Origin: a virus
Lineage: Duplodnaviria > Heunggongvirae > Uroviricota > Caudoviricetes
Strand: one strand, 5' to 3'
DNA: 64,000 nucleotides
IMG/VR virus record: IMGVR_UViG_2713896798_000008
Below the pieces are notes generated by a model. The model saw nothing but the letters and a program-made list of their open reading frames with translations. It had not been told where the DNA came from and searched no databases. This document shows, piece by piece, positions 10,500-64,000 of this stretch (its first letter is position 1; every line of letters starts with the position of its first letter). A program made the translations under genes and the position numbers.

Positions 10500-13033
10500 C
10501 GCCTGCCTCCGGAAAATACGCCGCCATCACGCATCTGCGCCTGAATCTCATCCTGCGCCCCCTTGCGGGCCATGTCATACACCGCTTTCATCAGCTGCGG
10601 CCCTGCCTGCCCCCTGGTACCGTCGTTCTGAATCACCACGTGATTGTTCTGATTAAAATTAATGCCTTCCGTCCGCCGCATCTGCACCGGACTTCCGGCA
10701 TCGCCGACATAACCACCTTCCGCATAGCCCCGCATCAGGCGGTACAGGTTGCCGACACCAATCCGGCTGGTTGCCTCCTTCGTGAAGACAAACTCCCCGC
10801 GATGAACAATCCCCGCAGGTTCATATTTACCTCCACTCCCGGTAAAACCCCCACCGGCAAATCCCATAGCTCCGGCCACGCTACTGACAACACCCACCAT
10901 GGCCTGCTTCAGAAAAATCTCTGTCAGCATGGAGAGCACCGAACGGGTGAAACCTCGCCAGTCCTGCTCACTGCCGGTCAGCATTGCCGCCATATTCTGT
11001 GCAATACCGTCAAAGGTCTGCGTGGCTGCACTCCTGACCTGCGAAAAACTGTCCGTCGCACTTTCCGCCCACTCGCCCCAGCCGGACTTCAGCCCGGCCA
11101 TCCAGCTTCCACGAAGCTGCTCCTCCGCAGACCAGGTGTTCTTCAGTGCAGATGTGGCCTTCGCCAGCGCATCCGGATTATCACCATACACGTCACGAAG
11201 ACGCTGCGATTCCGACTCCCGCTGTGCCTGACGGTCCGTCAGCCCCCGGGCTTTTGCGCTGATTGCAGCCTGCTTCGCACTCTGCTGCTGTTCAAACCGC
11301 GCAGCCTGATTTGCCAGCTCATTCAGCCGTTTCTGGTGCTCCACCTTGTCGCCCAGCTCAGCCAGCTGGCGTTTGTACTCAAGCGTCTCTTTCTCATGGG
11401 CCAGCAGGGATTTTTCCTGCTCAGATAACTGGCGTTTCGTGGCGGCCTCTTTCAGGACCGCATACTGATTTTCCGCTTTCCATAAATCACGGCGCTGCTG
11501 GCTGATTTTCTCATTCGCACCGCTGTGCTTCTCCAGCGTCCTGAGCTCGGTTTCAAGCGCCAGCAGGGCTGCATGTGCCCGGTCTTCCTGGCGCTCACCG
11601 GCAGACACCTTCACACCGGACGGCTTTTTCTGCGTCGACTCATAATCCTTTTTTGCCGACGCCATCAGCGTGTTGTAATCCGCCTGCAGGATTTTCCCGT
11701 CTTTCAGGGCCTGATTCAGCTCCTTCTGGCGGGCGGTATATTTATCCAGCGGCGACAGCATCCGTTCATACGCCTTCTGTGCCTCTCCGGTATACTTCAG
11801 CTGTGACGCGTCACGCTCAGCCTTATCCCTTGCCGCCAGTTCACCGGCTTTTTCCATATCCGACTGCAGCGTTGCCGCTGCCAGACTCAGACGGGCATTT
11901 TCACGGTCATCCCATGCCCCCTGAAGGTTGGCACGGAAAGAGGAGGTCTTTCCCCGGCGCTGGCTCCGGCTCTGGTACCACTGCCATTTTTTATCCGCCT
12001 CATCGAATGCCTTCTGCGCACTGGCAAGCATATCCGCTGAGGATTCCGGACGACCAATATCCAGAATGGCATCCCACATCGATTTGAACGCCTTCCCTGT
12101 TTTATCCGCCCAGGTTTCCAGCGTCCCCATGTTTTCTTTCAGGCGACGGGTCTGCTCATCAAAGCCTTTCGTGGCGATATCGTTCGCCGCCTGCAATGCC
12201 CCGGCTTCATCTCCGGAACGCTGCAACTGAGCAACATACGCAATCTGCTCCGCCGTCACGTTACGGAACTGGCGTGCCATCGCCATCAGTCCCGACGTCG
12301 GGTCTGTGGTCAGCTTCCCGAAGGCTTCAGCGACCTTGTCCACCTCCACACCGGATGCAGAAGCAAAACGCGCGACACTCTGGTTGATGGCATCAAACTG
12401 TTCACCACCACGCACACCGGCATTCACCAGGGCGGCCAGTGACTCACTCGCCTGGTTAAACGTCAGCCCTGCAGCCTGTCCGGCTCTGGAGAGCGTCAGC
12501 ATGCGATCGGCAGTCAGTCCGGACTGATTGCCGGAAAGGACCAGCGTTTTATTAAATTCTGAAAGCGTGGCGTCTCCCCGGTACCAGGCATACGCCAGCG
12601 CACCTGTCGCCACCGCCAGCGAGGTGACCCCGAACATCGGCAGGCTGATCGCTCCGGCAAGCCCCCTGAACATGGGGATCATCCCGCCGAAGGAGTCCTT
12701 CACCTGACCGCCCTGTTGCAGCAGGATCAGCCAGGGATTCTGACCACCGGCAAGCTGCGTGGCCACGTCGGTGAACTGCATGGGTAGCATACGCATGGCC
12801 GCTTTATACTGCCCGACGGAAATCCCGGCTTTTTGCGCAGCCAGCGCCTGACGGCTCAGGCCCTGTTCAACGGCAGTGGCCTGTTTATTAAAAGACTGGC
12901 TGACACGCCCGGCCATCAAATCCGCAAGGTCACTGGTTTCCCCCAGTTCTTTCTTTACCCGTGCAGCCTCTTCAGAAAAACGGGTTGAATCCAGTGTAAG
13001 AACAGCTGTCAGATCGGCAAAATTACCCGCCAT
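10496..13033 (-). CDS. H: tail tape measure protein H
   Basis: 845 aa, lambda gpH-like throughout; ATG at 13033 preceded by aggagg; track start at 13051 is TTG. Confidence 0.85.
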   Translation of the reverse strand: MAGNFADLTAVLTLDSTRFSEEAARVKKELGETSDLADLMAGRVSQSFNKQATAVEQGLSRQALAAQKAGISVGQYKAAMRMLPMQFTDVATQLAGGQNPWLILLQQGGQVKDSFGGMIPMFRGLAGAISLPMFGVTSLAVATGALAYAWYRGDATLSEFNKTLVLSGNQSGLTADRMLTLSRAGQAAGLTFNQASESLAALVNAGVRGGEQFDAINQSVARFASASGVEVDKVAEAFGKLTTDPTSGLMAMARQFRNVTAEQIAYVAQLQRSGDEAGALQAANDIATKGFDEQTRRLKENMGTLETWADKTGKAFKSMWDAILDIGRPESSADMLASAQKAFDEADKKWQWYQSRSQRRGKTSSFRANLQGAWDDRENARLSLAAATLQSDMEKAGELAARDKAERDASQLKYTGEAQKAYERMLSPLDKYTARQKELNQALKDGKILQADYNTLMASAKKDYESTQKKPSGVKVSAGERQEDRAHAALLALETELRTLEKHSGANEKISQQRRDLWKAENQYAVLKEAATKRQLSEQEKSLLAHEKETLEYKRQLAELGDKVEHQKRLNELANQAARFEQQQSAKQAAISAKARGLTDRQAQRESESQRLRDVYGDNPDALAKATSALKNTWSAEEQLRGSWMAGLKSGWGEWAESATDSFSQVRSAATQTFDGIAQNMAAMLTGSEQDWRGFTRSVLSMLTEIFLKQAMVGVVSSVAGAMGFAGGGFTGSGGKYEPAGIVHRGEFVFTKEATSRIGVGNLYRLMRGYAEGGYVGDAGSPVQMRRTEGINFNQNNHVVIQNDGTRGQAGPQLMKAVYDMARKGAQDEIQAQMRDGGVFSGGRR

Positions 13034-13904: not shown

Positions 13905-14654
13905 TTAACCCGCTGCACCATCCGTGACGTTAATTTCCGCCACTGCCGCAAACTGACCATTTCCGGTCACCACAGGGATCTGCGCTTTACCGGCCGCAAC
14001 ACCTTTCACCGTGATCGTATTCCCCTTCACGGTAATGGTCGCAAAATTCTGATTCGCCGACGTGGCGCGGAAGGTTTTATCTGTCGCCCCTTCCGGCTGA
14101 ACAGCCACGGTCAGGGTGATATTCTGACCTTTTGCCACATTGCCCGTTGGTGGCGTAACGGTAATACCGGTAACCGGTGTGATATCCCCCTGATCTTCCG
14201 CCAGCGACGGACGGCCGATATTGGTGATCTTCACGGTACGGGTGATCACCTCTCTGGCGGTCACCGCTTTACCAATGGCACTCACCCAGCCACGGAACAC
14301 ATCCACCGTGCCGTTCGGGAAACGGATTTTGTAGGCCCGGGTCTCACTGCTGTCAAACCAGGCGATCAAATCACGCTGTCCTTGCTCACCCGGTTTCCAG
14401 GCCAGCGTAAAACTGGTGTCACCGGCAGATTTCTGCCCCTGCCCGGTGGATACCCAGTCAGCATCCTCATCATCCAGATAGTTATCATCGTAGGATTCTG
14501 CCGTCATCTCGCCAGGGGTCAGATCTTTTATCTTTGCCAGGCGCGTCCACTCATCGTCTGACAACGGGTTTGCATAAGCATCACCAGTGCCGGTGTACAC
14601 CCATAGTGTGGTGCCGGAACCTTTCACCGGCTCAAGAGGATTTGGTATTGCCAT
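13905..14654 (-). CDS. V: major tail protein V with C-terminal Ig-like domain
   Basis: Collinear with lambda gpV ([32 protein letters not shown]). Confidence 0.9.
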
Positions 14655-58024: not shown

Positions 58025-58180
58025 TTACTCCTCAGGTTCGTAAGCTGTGAAGACAGCGACCTCCGTCTGGCCGGTTCGGATTCGTACCTCGCAGAGGTCT
58101 TTCCTCGTTACCAGTGCCGTCACTATGACGGTTAAACAGATGACGATCAGGGCGATTAACATCGCCTTTTGCTGCTTCAT
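58025..58180 (-). CDS. hokD: Hok-family type I toxin (HokD/RelF), below the ORF-track length cutoff
   Basis: Manually translated MKQQKAMLIALIVICLTVIVTALVTRKDLCEVRIRTGQTEVAVFTAYEPEE. Confidence 0.85.
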   Translation of the reverse strand: MKQQKAMLIALIVICLTVIVTALVTRKDLCEVRIRTGQTEVAVFTAYEPEE

Positions 58181-58251
58181 AGCCTGCTTCTCCTGTCAAC
58201 GCAAAGCAGAAGTGTCACCTTCGGTGCGAAACAGAGATGTCATGCTTTGGT

Positions 58252-58539
58252 TCAGAGAATGCGTTTGACCGCCTCGCTATATACTTCCGAGCGTTCTCTT
58301 TTCCCAACAGAAATCACGAAAACGACAACTTTCTCGTCTATAACCTGGTATACAAGGCGATAGCCTGAAGACCGGAGCTTAATCTTGTAACAATCAGGCA
58401 TACCACGGAGCTTGTTTGCTTCAATCCGGGGTGACTCAAGTACTTCAACCAGCTTCTTTTTCAACTGTTCACGTACCGTCGAGCCCAGCTTTCGCCATTC
58501 CTTTAGTGCCCGCTCGTCAAAATCCAGAAAATACGCCAT
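58252..58539 (-). CDS. relE: RelE toxin (type II TA mRNA interferase)
   Basis: 95 aa, matches E. coli RelE. Confidence 0.9.
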   Translation of the reverse strand: MAYFLDFDERALKEWRKLGSTVREQLKKKLVEVLESPRIEANKLRGMPDCYKIKLRSSGYRLVYQVIDEKVVVFVISVGKRERSEVYSEAVKRIL

Positions 58540-58778
58540 CAGAGTTCATCCAGCGTCACACGTACTGGCTTAGGATTACGAAGCCGTTCTTTCACTATCT
58601 CCACAAGTTCAGCATCTTCATCACTCAGGAGTGTCTGTTTGAACGGCAAGCGTTCATTGTCAGCGATATACTCGAGCATGAGACGAAGCGCTTCAGAAGG
58701 AGTTACACCCATTTTTTCAAGCGCGGCGTAAGAACGCGCTTTAAGTTCATCGTCAATACGCAGGTTAATGCTACCCAT
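58539..58778 (-). CDS. relB: RelB antitoxin
   Basis: 79 aa, matches E. coli RelB; overlaps relE start. Confidence 0.9.
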   Translation of the reverse strand: MGSINLRIDDELKARSYAALEKMGVTPSEALRLMLEYIADNERLPFKQTLLSDEDAELVEIVKERLRNPKPVRVTLDEL

Positions 58779-59391
58779 GTCTTACACCTCTTGTAATTAC
58801 AAATGTCATTACAAGTATCGCACTACAACATGCTTAGGGCAAGTCACGAAGGAAGTCAGAAAGTAGTCGTAAGAACGGTGATCACTGTCCGCTTTGTGCC
58901 AGGAGCAGCCATTGCTAAGTCCATCCTGTATTGTGCAGGTCAGCTCGTTTTTAAAGAGTCCGGCCATCATCTTACTGGTACAGACACCATATACTTTGTG
59001 ACGGTCAGGCTACATATGCACAACTCAACTTATTCATCTATTTTTTGCTTTAGCATGTCAGTGTTGCTTTCTCGTCGGCGGGTGAGCGGTGACCTGACCT
59101 GTCGATAAAGGAACGTAACACGTTTTATGCAACACCCGCATGCGGCAGAAAATTATTGCCGAACGTTTACCCCTGTCAACAAGCTTTACTTTCTGAGGCG
59201 CGCCAGCCCGCGAGGAAAACAATCTGAACATCAAACAATTAATGACACAAGAAATACGATTAAAGATTTTTTTGTGCATGCCGATAGTGCTTTTTTAAAA
59301 GGAGAAATCTATGTCTGTCACAATTCAGGGAAATACCTCAACCGTTATTTCAAAGTAAGCGTGCAGCAAGAACCGTATTGACGGGGATGTG

Positions 59392-60930
59392 TTATTCAGT
59401 CGGCAGTGCTACGCGCCAGGGGAGCAGTTCGCCGACCCGGTTTATCGGCCAGTCGGCTATGACGTCAAGGACATAGCGGAGGTAGCTTTCTGGCTCCACT
59501 CCGTTCAGTTTGCACGTCCCGATCAGGCTGTACAGCAGCGCTCCCCGCTCTCCTCCATGATCCGAACCGAAGAACAGGTAGTTTTTGCGGCCCAGACTGA
59601 CCATCCGCAACGCATTTTCAGCGATGTTATTGTCCGCCTCAGCCCAGCCATCATCTGCATAGTACGTCAGCGCCGGCCACTGGTTCAGGGCGTATGCGAA
59701 CGCTTTCGCCAGTTCTGAGTGTCGCGACAGGGTTTTCATCTTTTCACGCAGCCAGCTTTCCAGGGATTTCAGCAGCGGTTTCGTTTTCAACTGACGTTCG
59801 GCAAGGCGCTGCTCCGCCGTCATTCCCCTTATCTCTGCCTCGATGGCGTACAGTTCGCCGATCCGTTTCAGCGCTTCCTCCGTCAGGGCTGACGGGGTGC
59901 GAACGTGCACATCGTGGATTTTACGGCGGGCGTGAGCCCAACAGGCGGCTTCCGTTATCCGGCCATCCCGGTACAGCTCGTTGAACCCGGCGTATGCATC
60001 CGCCTGCAGTACACCACTGAACCCCGCAAGATGGGTCTGCGGATGGATGCCTTTTCTGTCCGGGCTGTAAGCGAACCACACCGCCGGCGCCAGCGTTGAC
60101 CCGGCGTTACGGTCGTCACGAACGTAGGTCCATAACCGCCCGGTCTTCGTTTTCTTATTGCCTGGCAACAGCACCGGGACAGGCGTGTCATCAGCATGGA
60201 GCTTACCGTCAGTCAGCACATAGTCCTGAAGCGCTTCTTCCAGCGGTGACAGTAGCCGGCAGCATGCATCCACCCAGCCCGACAGCAGTGAACGACTCAG
60301 CTCCACGCCCTGGCGGCCGTACATTTCAGACTGGCGGTACAGCGGGGTGTGCTCTGCATACTTTGAGATCAGCACGCGGGCCAGCAGCCCCGGTCCTGCG
60401 ATACCCCGCTCGATGGGCCGTGAAGGCGCGGGGGCCTGCACGATGGCATCGCACTGAGTACAGGCATGCTTTTCACGTACAGTCCGGATAACCCGGAAGA
60501 CGCTGCGCATCAACTCCAGCTGTTCGGCGGCATCCTCACCCAGATAGCTCAGTGAGCCTCCACATTCCGGGCAGCATGACGCTGCCGGCAGCAGCCGTTT
60601 TTCATCGCGGGGGAGTGATTCGGGGAACGGTTTGCGGGTGCGGGTTTGACGCAGCGGGCGCTGCACGGCCGGGTCGTCAACCCGACCGGTAAGGGTATCA
60701 CTTTCTTTCTGAAGTGCCTTCAGGTCAGCTTCCATCTGTGCGATACGACGGGAGACTTTTTCGGAGCGGCTGCCGAAGTTCATCCGGCGCAGCTTATCCA
60801 GCTGTGCCTGCAGATGGTCTATTTCGCGTTCACGCTCGTTCAGCTTTTCCAGCAGGGCACGGTTCAGCGCCTCCTGTTCGGCAAGGAGACGTTTCAGTGC
60901 ATTGATATCGTCAGGAAGTGAGCTGCTCAT
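59392..60930 (-). CDS. tnpC: IS66-family transposase TnpC
   Basis: 512 aa, Cys cluster CPECG...CTQC, typical IS66 transposase. Confidence 0.9.
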
Positions 60931-60978
60931 ACCGGGTATATTACCAGGCTCATTCAGCGTCGACCAGGATAAAGAGGC

Positions 60979-61326
60979 TTACAACATAGTCAGGGACGTA
61001 AGCAGTCTTTTAGGCTGCCGCCAGTCGATACCTTCAAGGAGCATCGCCAGCTGTGCCGGTGTGAGGAACACTTTGCCATCCCGGGCTGACGGCCAGGCGA
61101 AGCGGCCGCGCTCCAGCCGTTTGGTCAGCAGACACAGTCCATCGCCGGTAGACCAGAGGAGCTTTACCTGACTGCCATTACGCCCACGGAAGATAAAAAC
61201 GTGACCTGACATCGGATCGTCTTTCAGCGTCGTCTGCACCTTTGCCGCCAGGCCGTTGAAGCCATTTCTCATATCGGTGATACCGGCAACCAGCCAAATT
61301 TTTGTCCCGGAAGGTAACGGGATCAT
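60979..61326 (-). CDS. tnpB: IS66-family accessory protein TnpB
   Basis: 115 aa, MIPLPSGTKIWLVAGITDMRNGFNGLA. Confidence 0.9.
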   Translation of the reverse strand: MIPLPSGTKIWLVAGITDMRNGFNGLAAKVQTTLKDDPMSGHVFIFRGRNGSQVKLLWSTGDGLCLLTKRLERGRFAWPSARDGKVFLTPAQLAMLLEGIDWRQPKRLLTSLTML

Positions 61327-61724
61327 CGCTTCAGTTCCTGTATCAGCAGAGTCAGGAGCTTTTCGCTGACATTGCCATTGAAGCGGAGCGTCCCGTGCCG
61401 GAACGTTACCTCACAGCTGATACTGAGGGTTTTCGGGTCCTCTGCGAGCGATTCTGGCTGTTCGGCAGCTGCATCGAGAGTCACAGGAAGTAGCTGGGGG
61501 CTCTCTGAAGAAGGTAATAGCAGCTTTCCCTCGCGCCATTGTTGTCGCCATTTGAACAACAGATTGGCGTTAATGCCATTTTCAAGAGCAAGTTTTGAGA
61601 TGGATATCCCGGGTTCACAGGAGGCAGCAACGAGCTGCTGTTTAAATTCGGGAGGATAATTAGGGCTGCCTTTTCGCCTGCCGGGAGTCACATTTTTCTG
61701 CATATCTGACACTTTGGTTCCCAC
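61323..61724 (-). CDS. tnpA: IS66-family accessory protein TnpA
   Basis: 133 aa, overlaps tnpB start. Confidence 0.8.
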   Translation of the reverse strand: MGTKVSDMQKNVTPGRRKGSPNYPPEFKQQLVAASCEPGISISKLALENGINANLLFKWRQQWREGKLLLPSSESPQLLPVTLDAAAEQPESLAEDPKTLSISCEVTFRHGTLRFNGNVSEKLLTLLIQELKR

Positions 61725-61791
61725 TACTTATTTGGTGGACACCACTTTGTCTAATTCGTCAGATTCTGACCAGACGGTTCAGGCTGTACGC

Positions 61792-63354
61792 TTACAGATC
61801 AACTTTCCAGGGCAACAGATCGCGTACCCGGTTTGCCGGCCAGTCCTGGATATGTTCAATGACGTAACGCAGCCACTTTTCTGGCTCCACATTGTTCAGA
61901 CGGCATGTGCCGATCAGCGAGTACAACACCGCCGCATGTTCACCACCGCTGTCGGAACCCGCGAACATCCAGTTTTTCCGGCCTACGGCCACTCCCCGTA
62001 AGGCGTTCTCTGCGATGTTGTTGTCGATTTCCACCCAGCCATTACTGCAGTACACGTTCAGTGCATCCCACTGTTTCAGCAGGTATGCGAACGCTTTTGC
62101 CGTATCTGAGTGACGCGACAGTGTTTTCATCTGTTGCTGTATCCAGTCATACAGTGACTGCATCAGTGGCGCGGCTCTGGCTTTTCTTGCCGCCAGACGC
62201 TGTTCTGCTGAACAGCCCCGGACCTCTGCCTCGATGGCATACAGTTCACCGATACGCTGCAGGGCTTCCGTGGTGATGTAGGTGGGCGCTCTTGCATGCA
62301 CATCGTGGATTTTTCTCCGGGCATGAGCCATACACGCGGCTTCCGTTATTCTGCCGGATTCGTATAACGCCCGGTAACCACCGTAAGCATCGGCCTGAAG
62401 CACACCGCTGTAACCGGCCAGGTGATTTTGTGGATGGATACCTTTCCGGTCCGGACTGTACGCGAACCAGACCGCCGGGGGCATCTGTGAACCGGCGTTA
62501 CGGTCATCACGGACGTAGACCCACAGCCGGGCTGTCCGGGTTTTACCGCTGCCCGGCTCCTGGACCGGGACGGGGATATCATCAGCATGGACTTTACCGG
62601 GCATCAGCACATACTGGCGCAGGACGTCATACAGCGGCTCCAGCAGTTCAGCAACAGCACCTGTCCAGCGCCCCAGTGTGGCACGGCTCAGCTCCACTCC
62701 CTGACGACGGTATATTTCTGACTGGCGGTATAACGGCAGATGGTCTGCATATTTCCCGGTGACAACATGGGCCAGAAGCCCCGCTCCGGCATAACTGCGT
62801 GCAATGGGTTTTGAAGGTACTGGTGCCTGCACGATATGGTCGCACCGGCAACAGGCCTGTTTCGGACGTTGTGTTTCGATAACCTTAAAGGCGCTGCTGA
62901 TAAGCTCCAGTTGCTCTGACACATCACATCCCAGAGAACTGAGTTCACCACCACAGGCAGGACAGCATTCCTCTTCCGGCCGGATAACCCGGGTTTCACG
63001 GGGAAGTGAGGCCGGTAACGGTTTACGGGCTGAAGACTGGCGCAGGGCGGATGGCAGTACCGGGTCATATTGCTCACCCAGCGTTTCCGCCATTTCTTCC
63101 TGAAGTGCGCTGATTCGCTCCTGTGCTTCCTGTATCTGCCGTTCGGTTTTTGCACGAAGTTTTTCTGAGCTTTTACCGAACTGCATACGTTGCAGTTTCG
63201 CAACCAGCGCCTTCAGCCGGTTGATTTCGGAAGCATAAGCCGCCACCCGCTGTGAGAGCAGGCGGTTGTATTCAGCCATCTGGCGGATGGTGTCCTGTTG
63301 CGTCTGCAACAGTGCCCGCAGGCGGGCGTTCTCATGAGCAAGTGAGGTGTCCAT
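61792..63354 (-). CDS. tnpC: IS66-family transposase TnpC (second copy; stop codon supplied by the neighbouring IS end)
   Basis: 520 aa; stop codon lies inside the inverted repeat of the first element. Confidence 0.85.
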
Positions 63355-63373
63355 ATCCTCACTTTACAACGGG

Positions 63374-63721
63374 TTATATGCGGATTCCAGCGCGTTCCGT
63401 TCGTTTCGGGTGCTTCCAGTTGATACCTTCAAGAAGCATGGATAACTGAGCCGGAGTAAGGTGCACCTTGCCGTCACGGGTGACTGGCCAGACGAAGCGG
63501 CCCCGCTCCAGGCGTTTGGTGAAGAGGCACAGTCCGTCACTGTCAGCCCACAACACTTTTATCTGGTCACCCCGGCGTCCGCGGAAGATGAACAGGTGTC
63601 CGGAGAACGGGTCATCCTTCAGGACGTTCTGAACTTTTGATGCCAGGCCGTTAAAGCCATTTCGCATATCGGTGATACCTGCAACCAGCCAGATACGCGA
63701 ACCTGCAGGGAGAGATATCAT
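63374..63721 (-). CDS. tnpB: IS66-family TnpB (second copy)
   Basis: 115 aa, MISLPAGSRIWLVAGITDMRNGFNGLA. Confidence 0.9.
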   Translation of the reverse strand: MISLPAGSRIWLVAGITDMRNGFNGLASKVQNVLKDDPFSGHLFIFRGRRGDQIKVLWADSDGLCLFTKRLERGRFVWPVTRDGKVHLTPAQLSMLLEGINWKHPKRTERAGIRI

Positions 63722-64000
63722 CAGTGGCTGCTCCCTTTTATTTCGCGGATAAGTGTCTGTAATAACGCCGGCGTCAGTTTACCTTTAAGCCTGAGAGTTC
63801 CGGCCGGCAGAACCAGCTCACAACACAGACTGTCGGACGGTGTATTTATCTGCTCTGGTTCCTGTGCGGGGGCCGGGATTTTATTATCCGGCTCCGGCGT
63901 TAACGTCACGGGAAGCAGTGCCGGCATATTTTTTCCGGAAGGCAGCAGGCCACCTTTCCGGTATTGATGGCGCCAGTTGAAGAGCAGGTTATCGTTGATT
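63721..64000 (-). CDS. tnpA: IS66-family TnpA (second copy), 5' end truncated by window edge
   Basis: Frame stays open upstream of the annotated M to position 64000 (…LLFNWRHQYRKG…). Confidence 0.7.
   Translation of the reverse strand, partial: INDNLLFNWRHQYRKGGLLPSGKNMPALLPVTLTPEPDNKIPAPAQEPEQINTPSDSLCCELVLPAGTLRLKGKLTPALLQTLIREIKGSSH

Follow-up and report, generated by a model that had tools for sequence, protein, structure and literature searches.

A pair of IS66-family elements in the flxA gene of the Qin prophage of Escherichia coli, probably nested and scarred by a small deletion

Introduction

Insertion sequences of the IS66 family share imperfect terminal inverted repeats that start with GTAAGCG or GTAA, and one of them, ISCro1, was first named in Citrobacter rodentium. 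The family makes an 8-bp target-site duplication (Machida 1984, as quoted in PMC6778807). It is well established that insertion sequences can lose their duplication by adjacent deletion or by recombination (PMC11708052). In the adjacent deletions mediated by IS150, IS903, IS1 and others, the deletion starts exactly at a terminus of the insertion sequence, which is kept while the duplication is lost (PMC11708052). In the Agrobacterium pAt15955/pAtAch5 case, homologous recombination between two distant IS66-family copies, with a 270-kb deletion, left one copy whose 8-bp flanks do not match (PMC6778807).

Here we describe two catalogued IS66-family elements that lie back to back within flxA, a gene of the Qin prophage of E. 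coli, in a stretch of 64,000 nucleotides (hereafter referred to as the window). They probably represent a nested pair that was scarred by a small deletion beside one of its elements.

Results

By-eye alignment with the intact 333-nt flxA gene of K-12 (L003 1597-1929) identified nt 1-44 of this gene at 59311..59354 of the window, on the plus strand. The last 8 bp of this 5′ fragment, ATTTCAAA (59347-59354), flank the right end of the first element, ISEc22; the far end of the second element, ISCro1, is joined to flxA at nt 88 of the intact gene. The 43 bp of flxA between the nt 44 and nt 88 flanks are gone, and the gene is destroyed. An earlier note, made from this sequence without database searches, had pointed out that the elements lie immediately beside relBE-hokD. 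The relB, relE and hokD genes are indeed located just upstream of the pair (58025-58778); however, because the whole structure lies within flxA, this proximity is simply the normal gene order of K-12 and is incidental to the event. The joint between flxA and ISEc22 is crossed by an open reading frame on the plus strand (59127..59381; 84 aa), which appears in the ORF list and is annotated as the hypothetical protein WP_024196036.1. Its frame differs from that of flxA and it extends 27 nt into the ISEc22 repeat; it is therefore most likely no real gene. It serves as an exact-match tag for the flxA/ISEc22 joint.

The earlier note had proposed a complete IS66 element at 59355-61795. This segment, on the minus strand, is 100% identical over its full length of 2441 bp to ISEc22 copies in many E. 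coli genomes, the name being taken from RefSeq copies annotated as 'IS66-like element ISEc22 family transposase'. It begins with GTAAGCGTGCAG at 59355 and ends with CTGTACGCTTAC at 61795, and its right (59355-59382) and left (61768-61795) inverted repeats match at 22 of 28 positions when the ends are compared directly. The note had named two findings that would speak against its reading, a right inverted repeat of the second element at 61740-61795 and a boundary of the first element elsewhere; neither applies, since 61740-61795 belongs to the end of ISEc22 rather than to a repeat of ISCro1, and ISEc22 has its boundary at 61795. The three ISEc22 genes are all encoded on the minus strand. The tnpC gene (59392..60930) specifies a DDE transposase of 512 aa, with matches to Pfam DDE_Tnp_IS66 (1e-106), to the LZ, zf and C-terminal IS66 domains of Pfam and to NCBIfam transpos_IS66 (467 bits). 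The tnpB gene (60979..61326; 115 aa) matches Pfam TnpB_IS66 (1.6e-38) and NCBIfam IS66_TnpB, and tnpA, with a longest reading frame of 133 aa (61323..61724), matches Pfam HTH_Tnp_1 and NCBIfam IS66-like TnpA (98 bits, cutoff 74); the RefSeq product of tnpA has 126 aa and corresponds to 61323-61703. ISEc22 is structurally intact and therefore presumably still mobile. Its flanks, ATTTCAAA on one side and AGATCAAC (61796-61803) on the other, differ at 4 of 8 positions and do not constitute a target duplication, as the note had observed, whereas the same 2441-bp element at another locus (L004) is bounded by the perfect 8-bp duplication CAACAAAC.

The second element, which occupies 61796..64000 on the minus strand and continues past the window, is 100% identical to ISCro1 copies and lacks nt 1-43 of ISCro1. 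A complete ISCro1 comprises 2699 bp, with terminal repeats at both ends, and is bounded by 8-bp duplications, as in L002 1458-4156 (ACATAAAA). The copy in the window is incomplete: it begins at nt 44, the terminal 43 bp including the right inverted repeat are missing, and the remaining 2656 bp have 2 mismatches to the complete L002 copy; tnpA, tnpB and the left inverted repeat do not differ from those of ISCro1. In line with the note's claim that this element has no right inverted repeat of its own, a scan of the whole window that allowed up to 7 mismatches found none. The left end of ISCro1, GTAACCGGCTC..., is located outside the window, in L001; there the far end of the element, at a position equivalent to about 64451 of the window, was read at 13952, with the left inverted repeat adjoining flxA nt 88 (AGACAAAT...). 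The first 8 bp of the remnant (61796..61803), AGATCAAC, correspond to ISCro1 nt 44-51 and are the sole copy of this 8-bp target that survives here.

The ISCro1 tnpC gene (61792..63354, minus strand; 520 aa) was defined from the ORF list, the junction sequences and matches to Pfam DDE_Tnp_IS66 (2.5e-103) and NCBIfam. The native gene has 1572 nt (L002 1488-3059) and encodes 523 aa, of which the final three residues, SSQ, are gone in the window, and the stop codon TAA (61792-61794) comes from the left inverted repeat of ISEc22, confirming what the note had reported for this repeat. The tnpB gene (63374..63721, minus strand; 115 aa) is intact and matches Pfam TnpB_IS66 (4.7e-40). The 3′ part of tnpA lies at 63721..64000 on the minus strand, the full gene (225 aa; NCBIfam IS66_access_TnpA, 294 bits) being found at L001 13222-13899. 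ISCro1 retains its three genes, tnpC encoding a product that is 3 residues short, and a single end; because only one end is left, it should be unable to move on its own.

Both elements have consecutive tnpA, tnpB and tnpC genes with an IS66-type DDE transposase, which places them in the IS66 family. HTH_Tnp_1 was matched by both TnpA products, and the NCBIfam matches to transpos_IS66, IS66_TnpB and IS66 TnpA were all above their cutoffs. Terminal repeats of the family type are present at both ends of ISEc22 and at the left end only of ISCro1. Perfect 8-bp duplications bound 10 ISCro1 copies and 8 ISEc8/ISEc22 copies in the sample that we examined, which argues that the ISEc22 copy in the window lost its duplication in a secondary event and does not fall outside the family.

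Intact forms of a similar nested arrangement were found in two genomes. In CP189652.1 (L022), an intact ISCro1 with its own duplication, GGTGGAAC, contains a 2442-bp ISEc8-type element at nt 44-51; this nested element has the same orientation as in the window, a perfect AGATCAAC duplication and the 43-bp ISCro1 tip beside it, and is only 90.6% identical to the ISEc22 of the window. In NZ_CP074928.1 (L031), an intact ISCro1 with the duplication GAATGACA contains ISEc8 at the same nt 44-51 in inverted orientation, again with a perfect AGATCAAC duplication and the 43-bp tip; another ISEc8 of the same kind, in L024, shares about 87% identity with the ISEc22 of the window. As in the window, an element of the ISEc8/ISEc22 group is joined to ISCro1 between nt 43 and nt 44. 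Unlike the window, both genomes have both AGATCAAC copies, the 43-bp tip and ISCro1's own duplication, and their nested elements are at other host loci and, being 87-91% identical to ISEc22, are not the same insertion sequence. A simple nested insertion, with the host element on both sides and an 8-bp duplication, is seen in these two genomes and not in the window, where ISCro1 is present on one side only; the window differs from the intact nested configuration only in having lost DNA at the opposite flank of ISEc22.

These comparisons support the note's proposal of an IS-into-IS insertion followed by rearrangement, and the rearrangement would amount to a deletion of 102 bp. The flxA gene would have received ISCro1 (2699 bp) at AGACAAAT (nt 88-95), and the customary duplication of 8 bp would have formed. 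ISEc22 would then have entered the ISCro1 tip at AGATCAAC (nt 44-51), just inside the tnpC stop, as the intact parallels suggest; these two steps may also have occurred in the opposite order, with the nested pair then moving into flxA as a unit on the ISCro1 ends. Finally, a deletion would have started at the exact right end of ISEc22 (59355) and proceeded outward, removing one 8-bp AGATCAAC duplicate, the 43-bp ISCro1 tip, one 8-bp AGACAAAT duplicate and 43 bp of flxA (nt 45-87). Because no intermediate genome was found (see below), we infer the order of events and the ISEc22 end that was responsible.

The most likely cause of such a deletion would be a transposase-mediated adjacent deletion. 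The possible endpoints of the deletion, 59354/59355 and 61795/61796, coincide with the exact termini of ISEc22, which is itself 100% intact, as is the case in known adjacent deletions. Compared with those deletions, the one in the window is very short (102 bp) and takes the end of another insertion sequence. An intramolecular target at a distance of 102 bp is short for DNA looping. No microhomology is present at the endpoints of a deletion that followed nested insertion, which would be compatible with, without proving, a joint made by transposase. In the literature that could be consulted, we found no experimental demonstration of adjacent deletions by IS66-family elements. The lost segments of flxA and ISCro1 are both 43 bp long; no inverted or direct repeat relates the two, and we therefore treat the equality as chance.

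The same joints, and the same 102-bp deletion, would also result if both elements had inserted into flxA independently. ISEc22 would have inserted at ATTTCAAA (flxA nt 37-44) and ISCro1 separately at AGACAAAT, 51 bp downstream; the left end of ISEc22 would then have transposed intramolecularly into ISCro1 nt 44-51, deleting the intervening 102 bp (8 + 43 + 8 bp derived from flxA and ISCro1 nt 1-43), with a microhomology of 2 bp, CA, at the endpoints. Elements of the family have entered this gene repeatedly, ISCro1 in the window and, in strain 14EC007, ISEc8 at AGTTGTTA. Moreover, ATTTCAAA is AT-rich, as are other duplications observed, and the transposase would have the same target preference when acting within one molecule. 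However, two independent insertions within 51 bp are required in addition to the deletion, and in the collections searched no genome has ISEc22 in flxA with its duplication, the flxA/ISEc22 joint occurring only with the structure of the window. In addition, L022 and L031, with their intact nested elements, show that simple insertion at nt 44-51 takes place, so that nested insertion followed by deletion is the shorter route. We consider this pair of independent insertions unlikely.

Another route, with only two events in all, would be an aberrant insertion in a single step, in which the ISEc22 ends were joined to ISCro1-bearing flxA at points 94 bp apart, one following flxA nt 44 and the other preceding ISCro1 nt 44. 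The intervening 94 bp would be lost, hence the missing duplication. New insertions that lack a duplication and are accompanied by a deletion have been reported for other families (PMC11708052), and one of the two joints is at a recurrent target. No IS66 precedent was found in the literature that could be consulted, though, and the other copies examined have either clean 8-bp duplications or a plain absence of them. Since the final sequence would be the same as after insertion and subsequent deletion, it does not separate the two; we regard the single-step event as distinctly improbable.

When two copies of an insertion sequence undergo homologous recombination, the classical trace is a pair of 8-bp flanks that do not match, as shown for IS66 in the Agrobacterium plasmids (PMC6778807). 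Here, two ISEc22 copies in direct orientation, one at ATTTCAAA of flxA and the other at AGATCAAC of ISCro1, would have recombined with loss of one copy and the 102 bp. In contrast to the 270-kb deletion in Agrobacterium, only 102 bp are missing from the window and no second copy is evident. This scheme needs four events, including two ISEc22 insertions about 100 bp apart besides that of ISCro1, and neither precursor could be traced in the collections searched; it appears very unlikely. Even less credible is the movement of an already truncated pair into flxA as a unit, with the right repeat of ISEc22 replacing the lost one of ISCro1. The right-end repeats of the two elements are alike, sharing GTAAGCG...AGAACCGTATTGA, and the 5097-bp pair has one right-type and one left-type outer end. 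Yet the outer flanks, ATTTCAAA and AGACAAAT, are no duplication, with 43 bp of the target missing instead of 8 bp duplicated, and in all the collections searched, the truncated joint occurs at this one locus only. For the same two reasons, the absent outer 8-bp duplication and the single locus, the pair does not qualify as a composite or unit transposon.

The note had suggested comparison with sister genomes to find the ancestral configuration; this recovered the structure itself and no intermediate state. We searched 5426 complete E. coli genomes and the PLSDB plasmids for the two joints with flxA and for the IS/IS, reciprocal and inverted-orientation joints. An intact ISCro1 in flxA would show a joint of AATCACAAGACAAAT to GTAAGCGACTCG, a nested state with the tip retained a joint of GAGCTCAGATCAAC to GTAAGCGTGCAG, and an ISEc22 in flxA with its own duplication a joint of GCTTAC to ATTTCAAACAACTCC. 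The window structure was found, identical, in two complete genomes, CP144930 and CP144926, and only in these two among the genomes and plasmids above. Neither ISCro1 alone in flxA nor a nested pair with the 43-bp tip in flxA was detected in the complete genomes and PLSDB plasmids, in the draft contigs containing the junction ORF, in one genome per GTDB species or in the JGI metagenomes. An exact-pattern scan of the latter two collections for the joint of ISCro1 nt 44 to GTAAGCG gave 0 matches. The flxA/ISEc22 joint is present in about 18 contigs, mostly from draft assemblies.

Copies of insertion sequences are the commonest cause of mis-joins, and draft contigs break in this region, which could suggest a false join of two repeated elements by the assembler. 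Against this, the identical structure was recovered from two genomes finished independently of each other, of which one has an extra 2532-bp insertion inside ISEc22, and a scaffold from 2013 (L012) has the outer joints in the same order. In addition, flxA sequence lies on either side, with a gap of 43 bp between the two parts, and a random mis-join would not have this result. We thus give an artefact next to no credence.

An exact look-up of the 520-aa TnpC returned 343 blocks and was rejected as a measure of how far the joint has spread, because most of the contigs inspected do not contain the junction: they have partial gene calls at the ends of draft contigs, stopping 1-2 nt past the 520th codon on native ISCro1 sequence. 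The stops possibly lie at ISCro1 nt 41, where some copies have C and others G.

Discussion

The kind of event described here is already known: both elements are catalogued and annotated in RefSeq, and it is textbook knowledge that a deletion nearby can cost an insertion sequence its target duplication. The structure is an ordinary scar of transposon activity. Locally, it has inactivated flxA, a non-essential prophage gene, and immobilised one ISCro1 copy, and it is of little importance on its own. Two annotated proteins are products of the junction: the 520-aa 'ISCro1 transposase', which is not a natural variant, and the 84-aa 'hypothetical protein', which is most likely not a real gene.

Nucleotides 44-51 of ISCro1 have been hit three times on the same 8 bp, and the hits are independent since the elements and their orientations differ. 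Beyond this site, an ISCro1 copy has landed within the final 7 bp at one end of an ISEc8, an ISEc8 copy lies 1 bp away from the end of an ISCro1, and the tnpA gene of ISEc22 has received two different IS66 elements at positions separated by 3 bp. Tentatively, elements of the ISEc8/ISEc22 group might actively target ISCro1 nt 44-51 and, more generally, the ends of other IS66-family elements, a possibility that we consider less likely than not. Targeting of ends is known for the IS30, IS3 and IS21 families and, to our knowledge, has not been described for IS66. If it is real, one cause might be that DNA at IS66 termini is recognised when bent or when occupied by transposase. Different IS66-family elements have repeatedly inserted into one another's ends at positions that are the same or next to each other; if a systematic survey confirms this, it would inform our understanding of target choice in this poorly studied family.

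Composition of the IS66-family pair

From 59355 to its end, the window is taken up by two like-oriented insertion sequences of the IS66 family, both with minus-strand genes. The first (59355–61795, minus strand) is a complete ISEc22 of 2441 bp, which starts with GTAAGCGTGCAG and finishes with CTGTACGCTTAC and shows 100% full-length identity to ISEc22-annotated copies from numerous chromosomes and plasmids of E. coli. Its minus-strand genes tnpA (61323–61724), tnpB (60979–61326) and tnpC (59392–60930) all matched IS66 models of Pfam and NCBIfam with scores exceeding the curated cutoffs. The sequence from 61796 onward is 100% identical to ISCro1-annotated copies. A complete ISCro1 comprises 2699 bp with an 8-bp duplication on both sides, as at 1458–4156 of the reference locus L002 (ACATAAAA), and alignment to that copy showed that the window ISCro1 begins at nt 44. 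Nucleotides 1–43 (GTAAGCGACTCGTCAGAACCGTATTGATATTTACTGAGAGCTC) are absent, and with them the right inverted repeat; no such repeat was found elsewhere in the window with up to 7 mismatches allowed. The tnpC product, natively of 523 residues ending in KVDLSSQ, has 520 residues ending in KVDL, its TAA stop codon (61792–61794) being part of the ISEc22 terminal repeat. ISEc22 is flanked by ATTTCAAA on one side and AGATCAAC on the other, without an 8-bp duplication. The earlier note's description of the joint, namely a complete element up to 61795, a neighbor lacking its right repeat and borrowing a stop codon, and flanks that are no target duplication, is thus borne out.

The best match to the whole stretch was E. 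coli SCPM-O-B-9504 (NZ_CP144930.1), identical across 6.5 kb, from which we took the sequence beyond the window end. Mis-assembly was ruled out by two finished genomes and an older scaffold (L012). RefSeq lists an 84-residue 'hypothetical protein' (WP_024196036.1; 59127–59381, plus strand) that begins 5′ of flxA, out of frame with it, and terminates 27 nt into the ISEc22 repeat. This ORF is almost certainly an artefact of the junction.

The pair replaces 43 bp of flxA

The locus lies in the Qin prophage, in the order ydfT-ydfU-rem-hokD-relE-relB-ydfV-flxA-ydfW. To the left of ISEc22 are the flxA promoter and flxA nt 1–44; the far, left-repeat end of ISCro1 (13952 in the SCPM-O-B-9504 locus) adjoins AGACAAATTCAGG, the sequence of flxA from nt 88 onward. 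Some 1170 of the 5426 complete E. coli genomes carry an intact flxA, which reads ATTTCAAA, 43 bp, AGACAAAT, and the 5097-bp pair therefore replaces these 43 bp. The relBE-hokD genes are untouched and at their normal K-12 distance, so that their adjacency to the pair, correctly placed by the earlier note, is incidental. Movement of a truncated ISEc22-ISCro1 pair as a unit is highly improbable: the outer flanks carry no duplication, 43 bp of target are lost, and the ISEc22/ISCro1 joint was found at no other locus in the collections searched.

The lost flxA segment (1641–1683 of L003, an intact K-12 flxA) and the lost ISCro1 segment are both exactly 43 bp (window joints 59355 and 61796). A search for a repeat or symmetry linking the two segments found none, and we treat their equal length as a coincidence. 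In an unrelated strain (NZ_CP024131.1), ISEc8 lies in the Qin flxA at AGTTGTTA with a perfect duplication (L006 5029–5036 and 7479–7486); at least two members of the IS66 family have thus inserted into flxA, in separate lineages.

Parallel insertions at ISCro1 nt 44–51

We traced parallels through exact look-up of the 520-residue TnpC. In CP189652.1 (L022), a 2442-bp ISEc8-type element, 90.6% identical to the window ISEc22, sits in an ISCro1 that is itself bordered by a duplication, GGTGGAAC. The element joins ISCro1 exactly at nt 43|44 and is oriented as ISEc22 is in the window. A perfect 8-bp duplication, GTTGATCT (AGATCAAC on the other strand; 8552–8559 and 11002–11009), flanks it, and the 43-bp ISCro1 tip comes next. 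In NZ_CP074928.1 (L031), a tail-fibre gene of a prophage contains an ISCro1 (duplication GAATGACA), which carries an inverted ISEc8 at the same 8 bp with a perfect duplication (4093–4100 and 6543–6550). The draft contig L024 has the same inverted joint, its ISEc8 being 87.2% identical to the window ISEc22. As elements and orientations differ, these are independent insertions into one preferred target, and the joint at 61795/61796 is accordingly best read as a real transposase-made joint at that target. ISCro1 nt 44–51 (AGATCAAC; window 61796–61803), struck in both orientations by three ISEc8/ISEc22-group elements that are 87–100% mutually identical, looks like an insertion hot spot directly inside the right inverted repeat.

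The truncated TnpC appeared to be widespread (343 protein-collection blocks), an impression we rejected: most contigs read carry partial calls at draft contig ends, whose products are identical to the 520-residue form. These contigs stop 1–2 nt past codon 520 on native ISCro1 tnpC (L025–L030, 8560–8562, ISCro1 nt 43–41), possibly because ISCro1 copies differ by C/G at nt 41 (GAGCTC versus GAGGTC).

Nested insertion followed by deletion as the probable origin

Perfect 8-bp duplications bordered 10 ISCro1 and 8 ISEc8/ISEc22 copies in the loci examined; two others had none. Given this near-regularity, the window copy calls for a secondary event. Relative to an intact nested form placed in flxA at AGACAAAT, the window is short of 102 bp on the left side of ISEc22: the second AGATCAAC copy (8 bp), ISCro1 nt 1–43 (43 bp), the AGACAAAT duplicate (8 bp) and flxA nt 45–87 (43 bp). 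IS-mediated adjacent deletion, a documented route to target-duplication loss (PMC11708052), is recognized by a deletion that starts precisely where an intact IS ends. We infer that ISCro1 entered flxA at AGACAAAT and ISEc22 nested in it at nt 44–51, after which adjacent deletion from the ISEc22 terminus would have removed the 102 bp leftward. This course of events probably explains the structure, and the earlier note's insertion of one IS into another followed by rearrangement was essentially right, given the nested parallels (L022, L031) and the missing 102 bp. No intermediate genome was found among 5426 complete E. coli genomes, PLSDB, junction-ORF drafts, GTDB species representatives and JGI metagenomes.

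The identical 102-bp loss would also result if ISEc22 had entered flxA first, at ATTTCAAA, and an intramolecular transposition of its left end into the same target in ISCro1 had followed; this order requires two independent insertions 51 bp apart and is unlikely. A one-step aberrant insertion, in which the two ISEc22 ends were joined 94 bp apart, seems less likely still. Mismatched flanks of IS66 elements classically arise by recombination between copies (PMC6778807), but such an exchange between two ISEc22 copies would need four events here and is very improbable.

IS66-family elements near each other's ends

At five loci in unrelated strains and plasmids, ISCro1 and an ISEc8-type element adjoin end to end, with spacers of 1 bp (L007 3600–3602), 9 bp (L008 3600–3610), 38 bp (L009 3600–3639), 29 bp (L010 3600–3630) and 58 bp (L032 3643–3702). 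At L007, ISCro1 inserted within the final 7 bp of the left repeat of ISEc8 (duplication CGCTTACC), and at L008, ISEc8 inserted 1 bp off the ISCro1 right repeat (duplication TTTTTAGA). These arrangements suggest that IS66-family elements are drawn to each other's ends. The ISEc22 tnpA may be a second hot spot, having received two different IS66-family insertions 3 bp apart (window 61568–61575 and 61579–61586): a 2532-bp element with a transposase annotated as ISEc23-family in the finished sister genome CP144926 (duplication CGTTAATG), and ISCro1 in plasmid NZ_AP022179.1 (L004; duplication TTTTCAAG). IS66 elements were commonly nested within each other in the loci seen (L004, L005, L022 and L031).

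ISEc22 and ISCro1 are both catalogued, duplication loss by adjacent deletion is a known phenomenon, and the structure is a scar of the ordinary kind that transposons leave. Only one aspect is mildly new: the apparent frequency with which different IS66-family elements insert close to one another's ends, at identical or neighboring positions.
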